From Neodothiora populina (Eukaryota): DNA of 64,000 bases. Made by a program: the position numbers and the translations under genes. Location: positions 2,356,001 to 2,420,000 of the forward strand of contig NW_027191413.1 of NCBI RefSeq assembly GCF_041146345.1, written 5' to 3'. Every line of letters begins with the position of its first letter. The stretch's first letter is position 1. The notes beneath the pieces are model-generated. The model saw nothing but the letters and a program-made list of their open reading frames with translations. It was not told the DNA's origin and ran no database searches. This document shows positions 5,852 through 59,902 of the stretch, one piece after another.

Positions 5852-8800
5852 ATGGAGCGAGTGTGGAACGAATTCGTACCAATGAGCCTTTTCTTCTCCC
5901 ACCCATGCTTCCATGCCAATTTCACACCTGAACCTCCATGGCCTTTCCTCTTCTATCTCCCCGTCTGTGATACACGGCATGTACTTCCTTCGCCCTTGAC
6001 CACCTGCCGTACTTACTATGTCTACCCCTGTCTCAGCCCAGTCTGGAAAGAGTAAGTGAATACCGTCTGATACAGTATAGAAGAGGAATAAGATTGCAGG
6101 TCAATAGTGGAACAGAGCAGAGCAGAGCCAGGGCCGAGCAAAGCTGTATCATCAAGGTACACTAAGGTAAATATACTGTACTGTTGTTTTAGTCAAAATC
6201 AAGCTTTTCGTATCTGTAGTGTGGATCGTTTGGTGGGGGGGGGGGCGTGATGCTTATGTTCGTATCTATCTGTATAGATTTGGATGTGGAAGTGATAGTG
6301 GAAGTGGGTTTAAGTGGTGAATTCCTGTGGGTGTGGGTTTAGGTGGTGAATGCTTGTGGATGATGATAATACAGTAAGGGTAAGGTAGGTAGGTATGTTG
6401 TATATAGGACTGCTGAACCAAGTGTCCAGCGGCTCTTGATAAAAGCCGCCCAGGGCTGTCTACCTTGCTGCAAGTACGACATAATCAGCAGGCAAATGCC
6501 ACATTCGCGCCGTGGCGTCGATGCTTGTGACAGTGTACCATAGGGCTCATCCTGCCGCGGTTGAAGTTGTTGAATTGTCTGTTTTTGTCGCGGTGGACAA
6601 TGTTCTATAGTTTCCGAATCAAGAAGCATTCAGTGCATGGGCAGGATTTAGCATATTTGACGTTTCTGCCTTGCGGCGCTGCCTTGTTAGTACAGCACCA
6701 GAGGTTCGGGCCAACAGACTACTTGTACTGTACTGTCTTTTGCTCGTCGAGTCGGTTGTTCGAGATCATACTACTACGACTTACACTGCATCTTTCCTAA
6801 TCCTACCCTCACTTGCTTCTACACGTCTACTTGGCATTCACGACAAGCCGAGGTCTGTTGTCTAGCATGTCCGCGATCTTGCGGCGATAGTCACAGACCC
6901 CCTAGCTGCGTATTTGGGGGAGATCAATCATCTAATCGATGCAGCACAGTATTAGTGACTCTGCAGCCGCCTGCTGCTGCTGCTGCTGCTGCACGGTGCC
7001 TTTGGCTCGCGACATGAACGACTGGGTAGGCACGTTTTCGACCTCAGCCCCGTCAACCACTAAAGCACATCCTGAGCCCCAAGAACAAATCTGGCAGCTG
7101 CACGTCCGGGGGTCCCATCTCGTCTGCCTGTCTCTCCATCTGTCTTGATTGGTGGTTTCGATGTTCTGTAATGCGGATCCTCGCACAGTAAGGACTTTCC
7201 CCGCATCTGAGAGAAACAGGGCAGCAGACCGATCGGGAAATTTATGATCAATCACATTTTTTTTTTCCTGTTCTTCTTCTATCACTCTGGCTTCCAACTA
7301 TTGTCGTCGATGGGAGGGTATTTCCGCGCTTGCGATCTGTGTCTCTCGAACGGCAGAGCAGTCTAAGTCGTGCCACGTAACGATGACTTTACGGCCTTCT
7401 GTCCGTTCAGCACTAAGCAGTTATGGGGTATCTTTATGCGATTTCCCATTTGCACGTCGATTCCGGGCAAGTAGTGACAACATTGCGATGAGCAAGAGAC
7501 CAGAAGAAAACGAGGATCGTCTACCCTGCCTTATCATCCGTTTTTGTCATGGGGAATAGTGCATTATGCAGCCCCACACGCGCAGTGTACTTGTACTATG
7601 ATAAAAAGAGATCAATAGCAGAGGCACTCTAACTGCCTTTTCTTGCTATAGTAGTGAAGCACGAGACAACCGTTGGAAAACCGGAACCCAGCCCTGATCA
7701 AAGCGAACAGCTTATCTTGAAACGCATGCGCTTTTGGGTCTTATGTTTCTTTGTTTTTGCTTCTTCGCTTGTCGTGTGCAGCATATCCAGATATCTGGTT
7801 GCCAGTCTTTGCAGATACCAGTAGTGGACTCATGCATTAGAGCGTTTCTTCATAGCCTGCAGGAGTTGATCCGGGTCGGTCGCCACGTGCAAGGGCAGTT
7901 GTTCGCCTGCATCGTGCCGGGGCGTCGTGGTGGTGGTTGGATGATTGACCCTTTCATCATCCAGGGAGTCTTTCGAAAGAGTAACTTATAGCGAACGAGT
8001 GATGATCCAGAGACAATAATTATCGATGCGGCAAGACAGAACGGTACATCGACCGTACATCTCTTGCGTCTTGTATGAGTATGAGGTACAGTAGTCATGT
8101 TCAATGATAATGATGCGTTATCCATGATTACCTTGTTCCGATCGGCGTCACTATATTAGTTTTAGGCTATTTCTTTATGCCCGTTGCACCAGATCAAAAA
8201 GTAGTTTGTACAGCCTAACTGTGCAGCTTCTCCATCCTCCAACGAGGGCTCGCGTAAGCGAAGTACCGCTGTACCACGGCTTCGAGACTTTGGAATCTGG
8301 TTGCTCACCGCCAGCGACGGCATGCGTTGCGCGCCCACATCAAGCCACTGCCATGGGACCGGATCACCAGGCGGTTGGAGCTGACTGTATGTACTGTATG
8401 TACTAGTTATAGGTTCTAGATGCTCAATATTCTATGTCAAGATTCACTTTTTTACGGCTTCATAGCTTTCCCATGGAGTAAGTGGCTTATATGCAAAGCA
8501 AAGACGCATGGACTTCCAAGAGACACGGAAAAACTCATGTCATGTCTAATTCTTGTCGTCGGTCGTCTATGTTTTTTTTTGCTTGCTTGTGCGCTTTTAA
8601 GGTTCGCACGGTTTTCTGTGGCCCATTTCCGCAGGTGCTATAGCACATACAGCACATGTTGGCGAACAGTCTTTCCCCATAGCAGAAAAAGGTGAGCTAG
8701 AATACACCATGCATGATTGGGACTCACGCTAGAGGCCCGCAGCCCGCGTGGCCGCCGCCGCAGAAAGCTCGGAAAAGGAAATGTCTCCAGATGACCCTCG

Positions 8801-49094: not shown

Positions 49095-51639
49095 ATCAAC
49101 CTAGCTGGGTCATCAAAGGCTGTTTGCCTCCTGCCGTGGCTGATGAACCCCTTATATATCTGATCTGAGCTTCAAACCTCTCATGTCCTGGCGTGAGAAG
49201 GCACCCAGGCTCCCGGTAAATATTGCAGACCTATGGGCCAGTGATGAGATGGCATGTCCTCTAAGGTAAGGTAGCGTTCCTTGCGAATGTACCTGCATAG
49301 GTACTTTCGTACTTTTACGATGGGCTTTTGCAAAAACGTGATTGTGATATCAGGCCTAGATGGCGGGAGGTGAAAACTGGTACTGCGTACGACTCATAGC
49401 AACCAGACTTAAGTGTAAGGCACATTGGCAGCTTTGGATCTGCAAGATCTCTGCAGCACAGACTTTGTCGTAGATGTTTCCGTGCAGGAGCCTGCTGCTC
49501 AATTTCTATTATGCATAAGACAATATTGCGGCTCAGAACGCCACAAACCAAGCTGAATTGTTGTGGCGCTGTCCTCAAACCGAACCGCACGAGTCCCTGG
49601 CCTTCTTGTGCGTGTATGGTTATGTTGTTCTCAGTGACGACCCCCGTCAAGCAAGATAGATTGCTGTCCTCATCTTACGATGGTGCCATAGCTTCTATGC
49701 AGGTTATCAGATGTGGATCTGACGAGTGGGAAATTTCTTAAGCACAGGTACCTTATGTAACATGGATTGCAGATCTACTGTACCATGGTCTTAGTGCAGT
49801 TGATGACGTTCAGCCACTAACCACAAGCACCCTCCCTATATGCTCGTAATGTAATCCATGTACAAGCACTGTCAAACAACGTACCAGGAAGCATGTCATC
49901 GGGGTGTCGTTGGAGAAGGCTTAGTCTCGCCGGGAACCTTCGCACAGATCAACGAAGTGACATCCAGGAAACCCCCACCCCCGCGCACTAAATGGCTATG
50001 CGGTAGCGTAGGGTAAAGTACTGTTGGCACTTATCACCTTCTACTACTGTTCAGTTGTCAAGGTACTGTAATATTCGATCTCGATCAGCTTTGACAAGGA
50101 TAGAGTACTCAGGGTCGTATAAGTGGCACCATGGAGGATCTGCACTTTTTACCATGCAGAACATGGCCACAAACCCTATTCATCGACAGTGCCATACGTA
50201 CGATGCGCATGTTGCGCATGTTGCGTGAAACACCGAATTTGCGAATGCAGTATTTGCTTCGCCATCATTGCGACTTACACTTTTTCAATGACATATGCAT
50301 GTGCCCAAGGTACGTAAGAAGGTTGTCGGAGGTAAGTCCGCCAAATAGTGAGTGGAGCACATTACAATCGCCGCGGTATGCAGTAAAACTGTTGCTCTCG
50401 TGCGTTCGAACCAGTATCGCTGAAGCAGGGGTTTTCAGTTAGAATGATTTGGCTCTTTGGACCGGACCAAACACCTCCCAGCGGCCTTCTTTCCGCTCTC
50501 TCGACGATACGATGATCGCTGTAGAATCCGACACTTGAAACCCATCGTGAAGCTAGACTCAACGCAGCTATGATGTGCTATTACTAAATTCCCAGCTTCT
50601 CCGGCACGTCTTCTGCCTTGTTCTTTTTAATCGATCAGGGCAGGATCATCAACACTGCGCTGATATGGCGCATGGCGGTGGCTAAGCTTTGTGTGTATAT
50701 GTGCGTCGTACCTTCGGCATTTGACGGGTCAAGTGAGCCGATATATTTTGGATGCATCGCATCTATGTTGTCGCGTCCTTTGAGAATATGCGACTGGTCG
50801 TGATGATCAGGATATTGATGTCCTTGTGACGATCAAGTTGGCCGAAGGATTGCGCCTCTATTGTTCGACATCTTGTGCTTTGCCGAATCAGGTCCAAAGA
50901 TCCTTACTTTCCTTGGAGAGGACCAGTCCTCGCTTGCACTTCACAGAGTGCCGATGCAATTGGTCTCGATTCGGGAGACCTGACAACAACAGTGTAAACT
51001 ATACCTTTGGCAAGGCGGACCGTGACATTGCCAGCACCACCGTGCCCTCTTGCCTTTGCCCTGAGAGTACACATGGCAGCATTAGAAGATGTGATTAGTT
51101 GTATCACTCTTGCGTGAGTATCTTGGCCTCTCTCTTCTTATTCCCGCGCTCCATCGGTCGAAGCAACTAGTCTTGTATCGAGAACAAGGTTCTGTCACTG
51201 CGATTGCCATTCTGGACTCCGCGCTCCCGTTGTATATTTCCTACGATCTCCTCGAGTAGCGAAGTGCCGAAACGTGCAGCATCCGTTCACAGCACAAGTC
51301 TCATCAGCGACCATTTTCCATACTGGTGGACTGGGTTCCTGCCTTCTACACCCCCCCGGCGTTCTTCGCCTTCATTTTCTTTTCTCTCCTCTGCCTCCCT
51401 TGTCTCTATCAGCTCAGATTACTACAATCACCTACCTATTCCACTATAGCATGCAGGTCTCATCTGGTGGTATCCGCAACGAGCACAGAAATCGGGTTAA
51501 TCTACCTAGGTAGGCACTATTGGTGACACTCTCTGAAGAGACACACACCACTTTGCCACCTTCCTCGAGACCTATTTGATATTCTACCGTCTTGTCCGAC
51601 GCGCTGCACTTGCTGTCTTTGCTTTCGACCGGCTCTACT

Positions 51640-52085
51640 TTCTGTCCTCTCTCTGTTCTTTCCCTGTTCACTTCCTGCTCTTTCATGTGCAATTTCTTGT
51701 GATTAATCCCTTTCTACTCTTTCTCTTATTATCTCTCTGAACTCGCTGTTCACTTTTCTGCTCCTTTATTCATGTACATACCTTTCACTTTGTTTCTCAC
51801 TTAATTCTTTGATTCGAATATATCTCTACATACACGCACTCTGTCTCATTTCACTTTGTTCACTTATCTCGCACTCTCACTTTCATCATACCCGGTCACT
51901 ACTTCACTCCCTGTTTCTTATTCCTTTCTATACCTTCCTACTCTCTTGATCTCATTTACACTCAATTCACAGTCACATCGGTCTCTATACTGTGTCTCGC
52001 TTCTCTCTTGTTCTTCTTGTCATCTGCACTTTGAGTGTTCTTTTTATGCCCGTTGTTCCATATCCTCGATTCCTCCATCTTTTAT
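51640..52085. repeat. Low-complexity pyrimidine-rich tract with recurring TTCACT units
   Basis: Very low G on the + strand; TTCACT recurs several times. Confidence 0.5.
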
Positions 52086-52845
52086 CCAAGCGTAGGCTCG
52101 AGGCAAGGTGTACTTGTTGAGTAGACGGTCTTGCGAGAGTACACAGGAATGAGAAATTGCATTATACTGCAGGCAAACTTCATATCACCATGTTTTGAAG
52201 TGCCGTGGCTGCTGTGAAGTGGTGATGATAGTACGTCTTCTAGAAATAGAGGGATGCAATGGGTTTGGAAGCTCACTTGAGCGACATTCTTGACTAAGAG
52301 GTACACTTTCTCTCCTACTGGGCATATTAGGACAGGCTGCCATATAGATGACTGAGTTCTCAAAGTGGAAGAGAGGAGGAAAGGACAGAGGATCAAGACA
52401 AGCAATGCAAATTCTCTATTGCTCTTTTCTCATTCGAAACATATATATTAAAAAAAAAGGTGAACACCGCTTGTTGTGTTCCGTGAGAGACGGGGAGAAA
52501 CCGACTTTCCTCTCATTCCATCATGTTGAAGATGCTTTTGATTTTTCCTGACGATGGCATGACAATCATAAAAGACAGAAGAAAGACTCTCGTCTTTCCT
52601 CCATCACACAAATCTAGTTTTCGTTTTTCCTTTTCCTCTGCTATGCGATTCGTTCCTCCCCCATTCTTGGTTGTCGGCCTTGTTGAAGAACCGTTCTGTT
52701 GCCTGTACATGGTCTCTGAGTCGGCATTAAAACCAATCGGGAAACCCCCATTCTAATCCTACCATAAATATGCCCGTCGGACAATTTTGTGGTTTGGCAG
52801 TAGTGAGGACATCATACTTTTTCCCATGACATGTGTTTTCCCTTT

Positions 52846-54559
52846 TTAGTTGGTAGCAGAGTAGGTTTGCTTAGGGAACGGATACCTGCAGCACAAGGGA
52901 AACAAGATTCCAAATGTTAGCCTTTTCTGAGAGGCAAGAAAAAGAAAGAAGACAATCAACTGCGTCGATCGTCGATGTCGAGAGCATGAGGACAATAGAA
53001 TCGACTTGACGCAGGACCTGATCGTGTACGGAGATAACGGAAAAGCAGGGTGAGATGCAAAGCAAGAAAAGATGAACAAGGCAGGGATTCGATGGGGAGC
53101 GACATAAGCAGGGTCGGCGAGAAAGGCGGGTGGGTGTTTGTCAAATGTGGTTGATGTGGGACGCGACTTCTGTTTAGGGGAGAAACATCGGGGAGGCGGG
53201 GTGCGACACCATGCTTGCAGCACTAAGCCCTTTCTGGGCACAGCAAGCTTGACCCAAGAGTACCTGCACCTTTGCTCAGAGTAATCTTGTTTTCTCTTGC
53301 TTGCATGTGCGCTAAGAAGGTTGGCAAAGATGTGGGGCTCATCACAGCTCGAGTTCAATGCTCGGTCGATTGCTCGAGTTGAAGGAGCCAGAGATGAACC
53401 CTGCTGAATGCCACTGATGCGATGCAGGAAGAAGTGGATGACCAAGGCGGACGAAAGGGAAAAGAAGGAACGAAAAGAAAAAAGAAGATGACTTACGCAG
53501 GACCGAGCTCCTTGATGCTCAAGTGGGCCAACCACTGTCCCATGTCGACGCAGGTCTTGAGGCTCTCGCCCTTTGCGACACCGGCAACGAAGCCACCAGC
53601 GAAAGCATCACCAGCACCAGTGGTGTCGGCGATTTCGCTTTTGTCGATGGCGTGAACGGGGAACTCGTGAACCTTGTCCTCGTCCTGGACAGCTACAACG
53701 GTAGGGTCAGTGCCTTGGGTGATGATGACGGTTCTCTTGCGCTGAGAGTTTGCCTTGGGCAATTGGGCCAAGTGACGGGCGATGGTGGGGATGTCCTCGG
53801 TGTTGAGGTCGTGAGAAGCGGCGTAAGAACGAGCCTCGGTCTCATTGCCGACTACGTAGTCCCAGTAGGGAGCAGTCTGGTCGAGCTGGTCCTTGAAGAA
53901 CTGGGGAATGAAGGGGGCGGAGAGAGAGAGCATGAAAATCTTGTTCTCCTTTGCTGCCTCCTCGGCGAGAGCCATGATGGCAGGGACAGAGACGGTAAGG
54001 TGGTATCCGCCGACAAAATAAAGCTTGGCCTGCTTGACCAAGTCCCAGTTCTCCTTGAGGTGCTCGACCTTGTAGCAGTTTGCGGCGGCGAGGTCGGTGC
54101 ACATGGACCTGTCGTGGCCGGTGATGACGACTCCGCAACGACCGGTGGGCTGCTCCTCGTCGACACGGTAGACAGTGTGGAGACCGACCTTCTTGTTGGC
54201 CTCGACGAGCAGATCGGCGTACTTGTCCTTTCCCACGCAGCCAACGAAGACAACAGAGTCCTCGGGCAGGATGTACTGTGCACCTCTGGCAGTGTTCTGG
54301 GCAGCGCCGCCGGCGTTGAAGTCGGCCTTTCGGTTGATCAGGTCCTCGTAGATTCCCATGTGCTTCTCTTCTGCCAGGATGGCGTCGTTGGGCTTGAGGC
54401 CATATTTGTCGAGCAGGGCCTGGTCACTTTGGGTGAGAGCCACCAGGGTCAGTTGCTGGGATGGGAAATATCCCGAAGGAGAAGAATAAAAAAAACTCAC
54501 CCGACAGCCTGAATGTCGAGGAGAGGGTTCTCCAGCGCAAGAATCTCGTATTTGCCCAT
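52846..54559 (-). CDS. ADO1: Adenosine kinase (PfkB family)
   Basis: Exons 54559-54501, 54426-53497, 52885-52846. MGKYEILALENPLLDI, AGGAAQN, GNETEA, DTTGAGDAFAGGF, ELGPAYPFPKQ. An in-frame upstream ATG at 54799 may add 80 aa. Confidence 0.95.
53273..53349 (-). ncRNA. Candidate intronic box C/D snoRNA with an 18S rRNA guide
   Basis: C box GTGATGA (53345-53339), D box CTGA (53279-53276), short closing GC(T)/(A)GC pairing, guide AACAAGATTACT (53291-53280) complementary to the 18S segment GGUAAUCUUGUU recalled for filamentous ascomycetes. Confidence 0.65.
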
Positions 54560-58809: not shown

Positions 58810-59902
58810 GCTTGGGGGCAGCCTTGGGCTTCTCAGCCTTGGGGGCGGCCTCCTTCTTGGGGGGCTGGTTGGGGATGGCCTGGTCGATGAGAGTGAACTT
58901 CTCGGCGACGTCGGAGTAGATGGGCTGGTTGTAGACGGTCTCGTACCAACGGGAGACGTTGGGGTGCTCGCTTCTCCAGGCCTTGTCGAAGAAGTACTCA
59001 AAGCCACGGGCGATCAGGCCAGTGACGAAAAGATCGGCAAGAGTGAGACGCTCGCTGACGAGGTAGGTGTTGACGAGGAGGTGGTCGTCGAGGACCTTGA
59101 CGGCCTTGAGGGCAGCGGTCTTCTTGTCCTCGACAGACTTCTTGTTGTAGGGGTCCTTGCCGATGAGAGGGCGGAACCAGCCAGCGAGAGCGGGGAGGAT
59201 CTCGGTGTTGCCGTAGGACATCCATCTCAGGATGGCGGCGTAGTCCTGCTTGGTCTTGCCGAGGAGAGTGGTCTTCTCGTTCTGGGAGGTGACTAGAGAT
59301 GCAGAGTCAGTCCTGGCCGCGCATCTTTTTCATGGAGACAAAAATGAATAGTAGAGGATAGGATGCATGTCAGAGTGTGAATAATTCTCAACAATAGTCT
59401 TCAGACAGGGATAACTGTTTGAATGAAACTTCTCATCATTGCAGGTGGAGCGGCACAAGTACGAGGCGCGATAGGAAGGTGGGTTTCTGGAAACAGAGAA
59501 AAGAAAAGAACAAAAAGAGGCAGACGTACGATAGATGGCAATGGCCATGCACTCGGTCAGGACGTAACCATCAGCACCCTCGAAGGTGGGGACCTTGCCG
59601 AGCTTGTTGAGCTTGAGGTAGTCGGTCGAGACATCAGCGCCAGGCTGGGTCTGGACGATCTCGAGATCGAGGTTGTTGGCCTTGGCGACTGCGCGAATGG
59701 CAGTGCTGCGGGGGTTACCCTGTCGGTGACAAGTCAGTCATGCATTTTCGTTCTCGTGTGTGTGTGTGTGTTTCGTGTTTCTTGATCTCTGACTGTGCCA
59801 AGAGAAGAAAGAAAAGAGTGGCGGCGCCAAGTGCTTTGAAACCGCACAGGAGTGAGATGTGAAAAGACATACCGGGTAGGTGAAGAGCTTGCCGAAAGAC
59901 AT
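58268..59902 (-). CDS. TEF4: Translation elongation factor eEF1B-gamma
   Basis: Exons 59902-59873, 59719-59530, 59292-58268; GST-like N-terminal domain (GKVPTFEGADG..LTECMAI) and C-terminal KPKHPL..KRKYSN..APDYESY..DGKVFK. Confidence 0.96.
59364..59444 (-). ncRNA. snR38: Box C/D snoRNA snR38 homolog in eEF1B-gamma intron 2
   Basis: C box ATGATGA (59439-59433), guide CAGTTATCCCTGT followed by D' CTGA (59404-59401), D box CTGA (59373-59370), TGCA/TGCA terminal stem; the guide is complementary to LSU rRNA ACAGGGAUAACUG; yeast snR38 lies in the TEF4 intron. Confidence 0.93.

Follow-up and report, generated by a model that had tools for sequence, protein, structure and literature searches.

Does the last intron of the adenosine kinase gene ADO1 in Neodothiora populina encode a box C/D snoRNA that directs methylation of 18S rRNA, or does it carry only the likeness of one? 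The question comes from an earlier reading, made from the sequence alone, of a 64,000-nt stretch of genomic DNA (the window), which proposed an unannotated snoRNA within this intron. The explanation that we prefer, with about even confidence, is that the intron is structured and the candidate a snoRNA look-alike, of chance or decayed origin. The host gene is laid out as follows, with positions counted from the first nucleotide of the window.

54501..54559, minus strand: coding exon 1 of ADO1 (adenosine kinase), with the ATG at 54559; the gene product equals the named protein P0121
54427..54500, minus strand: ADO1 intron 1, 74 nt
53497..54426, minus strand: ADO1 exon 2 (PfkB domain)
52886..53496, minus strand: ADO1 intron 2, the last, 611 nt, with a GTAAGT donor, a GCTAAC branch site and a CAG acceptor
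52916..52921, minus strand: branch site GCUAAC of ADO1 intron 2
52846..52885, minus strand: ADO1 exon 3, to the stop codon

The spliced product of 342 aa matches N. populina AAFC00_003158 (P0121) letter for letter, and the ADO1 proteins of other Dothideales are 84-89% identical. Scored with splice profiles from 41 distinct orthologous introns, intron 2 has one donor, at 10.9 bits against -0.7 for the runner-up, and one branch site, at 9.5 against 3.7, and is therefore a single intron. A nested or recursive intron within it, or an intron on the opposite strand, was rejected, as there was no credible donor or branch site. A stop-free frame of 253 codons (52846-53607, minus strand) runs through all 611 nt of the intron, up to the stop codon of ADO1. 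By chance, an open frame through the intron arose in 92 of 20,000 shuffles for a fixed frame (the frame counted differing from the one observed) and in 261 for any of the three frames. A coding remnant was rejected here, since the frame gave no Pfam match and no protein at E 0.001 among 1.84 billion. In-frame internal YAG triplets occur at intron positions 83, 185, 233, 263 and 479, none with a branch site.

Several side observations concern the gene and its surroundings. In the public annotation, ADO1 also appears as a 422-aa form (P0122) with an N-terminal extension of 80 residues, which by eye looks like a mitochondrial presequence. A long pyrimidine-rich stretch on the plus strand (51380-52100), holding no long ORF, converges on the 3' end of ADO1 and is possibly a leader, an intron or a non-coding transcript. 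The 8-mer TGCAGGTA occurs twice on the minus strand, at 53268-53261, 12 nt past the D box described below, and at 52890-52883, across the true 3' splice junction; the copy past the D box reads as an AG|GT junction but has no branch site.

The elements of the candidate, together with the one established snoRNA of the window, which serves as a positive control, are located as follows.

53339..53345, minus strand: C box GUGAUGA, in the 3' arm of hairpin 1 (see below)
53276..53279, minus strand: D box CUGA, in hairpin 2
53280..53291, minus strand: putative D guide AACAAGATTACT, 12 nt, abutting the D box on its 5' side and complementary to 18S 1512-1523 (yeast scale)
53313..53324, minus strand: CCAACCUU followed by a D'-like CUUA (CUUA at 53316-53313)
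59363-59444, minus strand: snoR38/snR38 (RF00213), 46.9 bits, the only Rfam match at threshold in the window

Gene, intron, boxes and guide are all as the sequence-only reading had described them: the C and D boxes are perfect and 59 nt apart, and the guide lies flush with the D box. The two boxes are also the sole RTGATGA and the sole CTGA of the intron, and the 12 nt of the guide fall within the 10-21 nt usual for box C/D guides. The C-to-D length of the candidate is 70 nt, identical to that of snR38, which resides in a 237-nt intron (59529-59293) of the EF1-gamma gene. Both helices of the k-turn flanks have at least 2 bp in only one of the 29 C-D pairs of the window, namely the candidate. 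The middle of the candidate, inspected for a C' box, contained no recognisable one. According to the available parts of two studies, C'/D' motifs are often degenerate (PMC5824354, PMC3116282), and the first of these also reports that more than 40% of fungal C/D snoRNAs have no terminal stem. At the gathering threshold of Rfam 15, no family matches the candidate, and the best relaxed scores are 13-16 bits against thresholds of 40-110; the proposal had likewise seen no obvious internal boxes and had presented the snoRNA as unannotated. Its 3' part aligns weakly with SNORD58 (RF00151), with similar ends (13.7 bits, E 3.4), far under the gathering score of 42, so that it is a non-member.

The 18S complement named in the sequence-only reading does exist. 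A search for fungal rDNA among contigs that contaminate prokaryote assemblies gave 25 loci, of which 24 are rDNA judging by their sequence context; an Rfam SSU match was obtained for all 9 of the loci submitted, and the 25th locus is not rDNA. The complement reads GGTAATCTTGTT in 19 of the 24 rDNA loci and GGTAATCTTGTG (GTG at the end) in the other 5, counts that establish the existence of the site and not its frequency, given that the search pattern required the target motif together with a second motif. Between the guide and GGTAATCTTGTT, taken from loci not known as those of N. populina, 12 bp can form (11 Watson-Crick pairs and one G-U at position 1). By the D+5 rule the target is the second A, as had been predicted; it is 1511/1512 in three full-length 18S sequences and 1516 on the yeast scale (yeast GGUAAU 1512-1517). 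Directly 5' of this target, CCAACCUU pairs over 8 bp with 18S in rDNA locus L098, and over at most 7 bp in the other 23 of the 24. To judge from its ITS, L098 looks like a Dothideomycete. Pairing of 8 bp was equalled by 551 of 3000 shuffles and is not significant alone; the layout resembles the extra base-pairing of yeast snoRNAs, as set out in the accessible part of PMC3116282.

As regards the contigs themselves, 24 (within L082-L106) belong to bacterial species-representative assemblies and represent fungal rDNA contamination. In one of them (L105:3288-4991), the 18S fragment exceeds the matched model span and the target motif lies farther from the 18S end, and insertions, for instance group I introns, are probable in this 18S.

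The adenosine had been proposed as a site outside the S. cerevisiae set, and the accessible portion of the S. cerevisiae map indeed has no modified 18S base between 1428 and 1572 (PMC5062969). The corresponding portion for S. pombe has none between 1448 and 1613 (PMC4605285). In the available part of the N. crassa list there is no guide for 18S A1511, and the guide sequence is absent (PMC2780460); the same study predicts an H/ACA guide, ACA8, for Psi1509, two bases 5' of the target. The available A. fumigatus table lists no target nearby and includes 10 orphans (PMC2377427). The T. rubrum table, in its accessible portion, lists Am1540 (PMC3890542), which from the offset of its snR56 site would lie about 60 nt 3' of the candidate site. 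A literature search for Am1511/1512/1515/1516/1517 methylation returned no relevant report.

How often would such an arrangement arise by chance? Among the 517 CTGA motifs of the window, the candidate's alone shows a Watson-Crick run of at least 11 nt against rRNA (4,520 nt tested, made up of 18S, 5.8S and partial 25S), and a random 20-mer reaches an 11-nt run with a frequency of 0.0022. Among 20,000 shuffles of the intron, 229 contained a C-D pair and none a C-D pair with a run of at least 11. Over both strands, the 29 C-D pairs multiplied by 0.0022 give an expectation of about 0.06 per window (about 1 per 16 windows), and scans of many windows will therefore meet such matches. The candidate is thus striking within the ADO1 intron but not beyond chance for a multi-window scan. 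Among viral contigs, the C-box, guide and D pattern gave one match (L081), about chance level, and two 18S patterns found none.

These results bear on a rival explanation that we regard as possible but doubtful, that of a real lineage-restricted box C/D snoRNA. Snu13 would bind the C/D kink-turn, about 78 nt would be trimmed from the debranched intron, and Nop1, directed by the D guide, would methylate 18S A1516; within this scheme CCAACCUU may either contribute pairing just 5' of the site or serve as a D' guide. It is favoured by the perfect boxes on the sense strand with a guide of 11+1 bp that no shuffle and no other CTGA reproduced, by the good k-turn flanks, by the snR38-like C-to-D length, by the target in 19 of 24 loci and by the 8-bp pairing beside it in L098. 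Also on its side are the lineage-specific C/D families of fungi (described in the available part of PMC5824354) and the prediction that N. crassa ACA8 acts on a uridine two positions 5' of the candidate site (PMC2780460). A change of host is possible for snoRNAs, and the relatives compared below are all at most 81% identical. By our own estimate, boxes and guide, weighed before context is considered, speak for a snoRNA by perhaps twenty to one. On the other side, the CCAACCUU pairing is chance-like and reaches 8 bp in a single rDNA locus, and the site has no listed guide or modification in the accessible data for S. cerevisiae, S. pombe, N. crassa, A. fumigatus and T. rubrum. Much of the remaining evidence against it comes from context, beginning with two predicted hairpins, whose bounds (and hence z-scores) were picked after the fold was seen.

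53335..53401, minus strand: hairpin 1, 67 nt, -28.4 kcal/mol, z -3.8, with ACA one base after it
53238..53310, minus strand: hairpin 2, about 73 nt, -29.5 kcal/mol, z -4.1, holding the guide and the D box, with AGA two bases after it

Among 470 background folding windows, z was at or below -3.3 in one and at or below -2.5 in seven; the stability of the whole 611-nt intron is ordinary (z -1.17). In the full intron, the probability of being unpaired is at most 0.16 at 6 of the 7 bases of the C box, and the predicted fold has 0.0 expected pairs between the two flanks of the candidate. Freeing both boxes would cost a predicted 13.6 kcal/mol, as opposed to 3.9 for snR38 in the window, in a calculation of equilibrium folding that takes no account of proteins. 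Once trimmed to 78 nt, the RNA is predicted to leave most of its guide open, and by this model a mature RNA, should one be produced, could function.

The position of the candidate in the intron was also compared with known cases. From the end of the D box to the acceptor there are 390 nt, versus 77 nt for snR38, and from the C box to the donor 151 nt; in N. crassa, most such snoRNAs lie 41-60 nt from the 5' splice site according to the available part of PMC2780460. A search for literature on the distance between snoRNA and branch point found no relevant report, and the argument from position therefore rests on PMC2780460 and the snR38 control. Among the contrasts between candidate and snR38 is a G+C content of 0.46 versus 0.34. 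Further hairpins occur on the minus strand at 53050-52930, one of which stops just short of the branch site (z -2.84 and -2.55 in windows of 80 and 120 nt); if formed as modelled, they may shorten the effective intron.

Conservation was examined by a metagenome scan, in which the best 80 of 112 ADO1 relatives were used (54-81% protein identity). Among these 80, 46 loci have a complete intron at the same site (41 distinct), with lengths of 47-328 nt and a median of 109; the rest comprise 4 partial introns and 30 loci that are spliced, intronless, truncated or missed by the donor pattern. With its 611 nt, the N. populina intron is thus as unusually long as had been claimed. None of the 46 complete orthologous introns, from relatives of 54-81% protein identity, contains a C box (TGATGA), and the guide is found in none of the best 80 of the 112 relative loci (at most 81% protein identity). 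This is the conservation check called for when the snoRNA was proposed, and it leaves the production of a snoRNA unsupported. The best blastn match of the intron to the 313,658 nt of these loci (L001-L080) had an E value of 0.045 and was of low complexity. In Aureobasidium, of the same order, the intron would be about 55 nt here, judging from the read-through gene models P0131, P0141 and P0006. Since the orthologous introns are short and that of Aureobasidium appears short as well, the long ADO1 intron is likely to be recent.

Part of the intron has a relative elsewhere in the window, and the guide has a complement near the acceptor.

8566..8626, minus strand: diverged copy of the middle of the candidate, without the C box, the D box and the 3' half of the guide
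52900..52909, minus strand: 10-nt tract between branch site and acceptor, the exact complement of guide region 53292-53283

The diverged copy, 45 kb away, shares 32 of the 39 nt of the blastn core and agrees in 45 of 61 columns of a local alignment. Its score was matched by 1 of 1000 shuffles, by none of 60 fifth-order Markov windows and by 4 of 780 window tiles, three of which were microsatellites; it is the sole repeat pair not made of microsatellites. By its sequence, the copy may be a small repeat or a duplicate that has decayed. No gene was recognised in the roughly 7 kb around it (5.9-12.8 kb).

The hairpins and the copy also give some room to a different structured RNA. In this unlikely alternative, the region at about 53401-53232 would be a two-hairpin RNA (H/ACA-like, another structured RNA or a small repeat element) in which the C/D reading is incidental. 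Its hairpin-hinge-hairpin layout of about 170 nt falls inside the fungal H/ACA size range of 150-270 nt given in the accessible part of PMC5824354; ACA follows hairpin 1 and AGA hairpin 2, the z-scores are strong, and a second, partial copy exists. However, the hinge ACAUCU and the tail AGA both depart from the H box ANANNA/ACA consensus stated there (PMC5824354). The best H/ACA pocket in the intron has 12 bp and was equalled or beaten by 1299 of 1668 shuffles (in a target set limited to rRNA, with 25S lacking its final third), pockets consistent with the fold have at most 10 bp, and there is no Rfam match. A homologue of ACA8 in the intron was considered separately and rejected, as no H or ACA box has the spacing that such a pocket requires.

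The tract near the acceptor brings in a regulatory possibility. No exact inverted repeat in the intron is longer than the one between the guide and this tract, which for this guide arises in 76 of 20,000 shuffles, and the duplex of the two (-21.2 kcal/mol) was equalled by 19 of 2000. On this basis the intron could act as a cis snoRNA-like switch of the SNORD86/SNORD2 type, a reading we consider quite improbable: the hairpin fold would permit splicing, whereas C/D core proteins would free the guide, which would pair with the 3' tract and slow splicing, so that adenosine kinase output would track snoRNP supply. The two predicted folds are mutually exclusive, no stop codon interrupts the intron when read in frame with exon 3, and human precedents are described in the available parts of PMC10324135 and PMC11028025. 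Yet an inverted repeat of at least 10 nt anywhere occurs in 32 of 300 shuffled introns, and the pairing probability of guide and 3' tract is 0.001 in the free ensemble. The purine-rich guide segment has predicted duplexes of broadly similar strength, of -26.3 kcal/mol with its local arm, -22.7 with a mid-intron tract, -22.1 with 18S and -21.2 with the 3' tract; the advantage of the local arm over 18S speaks for a look-alike. The profile scan offers no alternative donor or branch site, the intron lies in the last 40 coding nt, and no conserved regulatory role is seen in the relatives. A combined form of these ideas, a recent snoRNA with a dual role that guides methylation of 18S A1516 and also works as an in-intron hairpin/snoRNP switch masking the ADO1 3' splice tract, seems to us very improbable, more so than the switch by itself.

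We return to the preferred explanation, a look-alike of chance or decayed origin. It is chosen because, with weights that we estimated, the position, the buried boxes, the missing C' box, the non-conservation and the box-less copy outweigh the evidence of boxes and guide; the same features count against the real snoRNA. For the look-alike we have before us the sequence, the expansion of the intron, the predicted folds and the copy. The last ADO1 intron expanded in this lineage, reaching 611 nt from a length of about 50-150 nt, and the added sequence includes two imperfect inverted repeats, several pyrimidine tracts and a part related to the stretch 45 kb off. The course of events in the cell may then be as follows. 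During transcription, hairpin 1 would close over the C box, and hairpin 2 or a downstream pyrimidine tract would sequester the guide and the D box. The kink-turn would then not be offered to Snu13, and no snoRNP would assemble. The intron would be spliced whole and then degraded, and 18S A1516 would stay unmethylated.

A look-alike would provide a useful false-positive case, in which boxes with an 11-nt match turn up about once per 16 windows by chance. A plain guide would add one more lineage-specific snoRNA and a new 18S methylation site, lying in a stretch of about 140 nt of 18S that is unmodified in both mapped yeasts. Its interest would be modest because unlisted fungal snoRNAs are to be expected, the fungal survey having been seeded from five species only (according to the accessible part of PMC5824354). 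A real snoRNA would also represent a datable snoRNA birth or change of host, because Aureobasidium, of the same order, appears to have a short intron. A cis switch would extend a mechanism of human cells to fungi and to an enzyme of the methyl cycle. Adenosine kinase clears the product of SAH hydrolysis, and under the dual role it would be tied to the supply of the rRNA methylation machinery. The sequence-only reading had pointed to a link between the host and the methylation (SAH) cycle, and our analysis found no evidence for it.

In the literature, the candidate is not described in the available parts of the sources consulted, which include PMC5640933 and PMC5824354 apart from its external supplement. 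Searches on adenosine kinase intron snoRNAs in fungi and on RiboMeth-seq in fungi found no relevant report; a search on intronic box C/D snoRNAs of Dothideomycetes, judged by titles and the beginnings of abstracts, found none on the candidate.

Among known systems, human SNORD86 (NOP56) and SNORD2 (EIF4A2) resemble the candidate in that their box C/D sequence can also fold outside a snoRNP and is complementary to a 3' portion of the host intron. As presented in the accessible parts of PMC10324135 and PMC11028025, they are conserved, demonstrated by experiment and associated with alternative splice sites, whereas the candidate is a prediction, is unconserved and has no alternative site. N. crassa ACA8 pairs with the same 18S stretch, using CAAGA, but is of the H/ACA class, intergenic and aimed two bases upstream (PMC2780460). 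The N. crassa RNAs CD9, CD13, CD18 and CD33, intronic with a single D guide and about 75-100 nt long in the available part of PMC2780460, share with the candidate a location in a sense-strand intron, perfect C/D boxes and a guide of 11-13 bp abutting the D box; none of the sequences listed in that part has its guide or target. The nearest comparison is snR38, in the same genome, on the same strand, in a protein-coding host and with the same C-to-D length. Unlike the candidate, snR38 passes its Rfam threshold, has clear D' and C' boxes, is A+U-rich and keeps boxes that are cheap to free.
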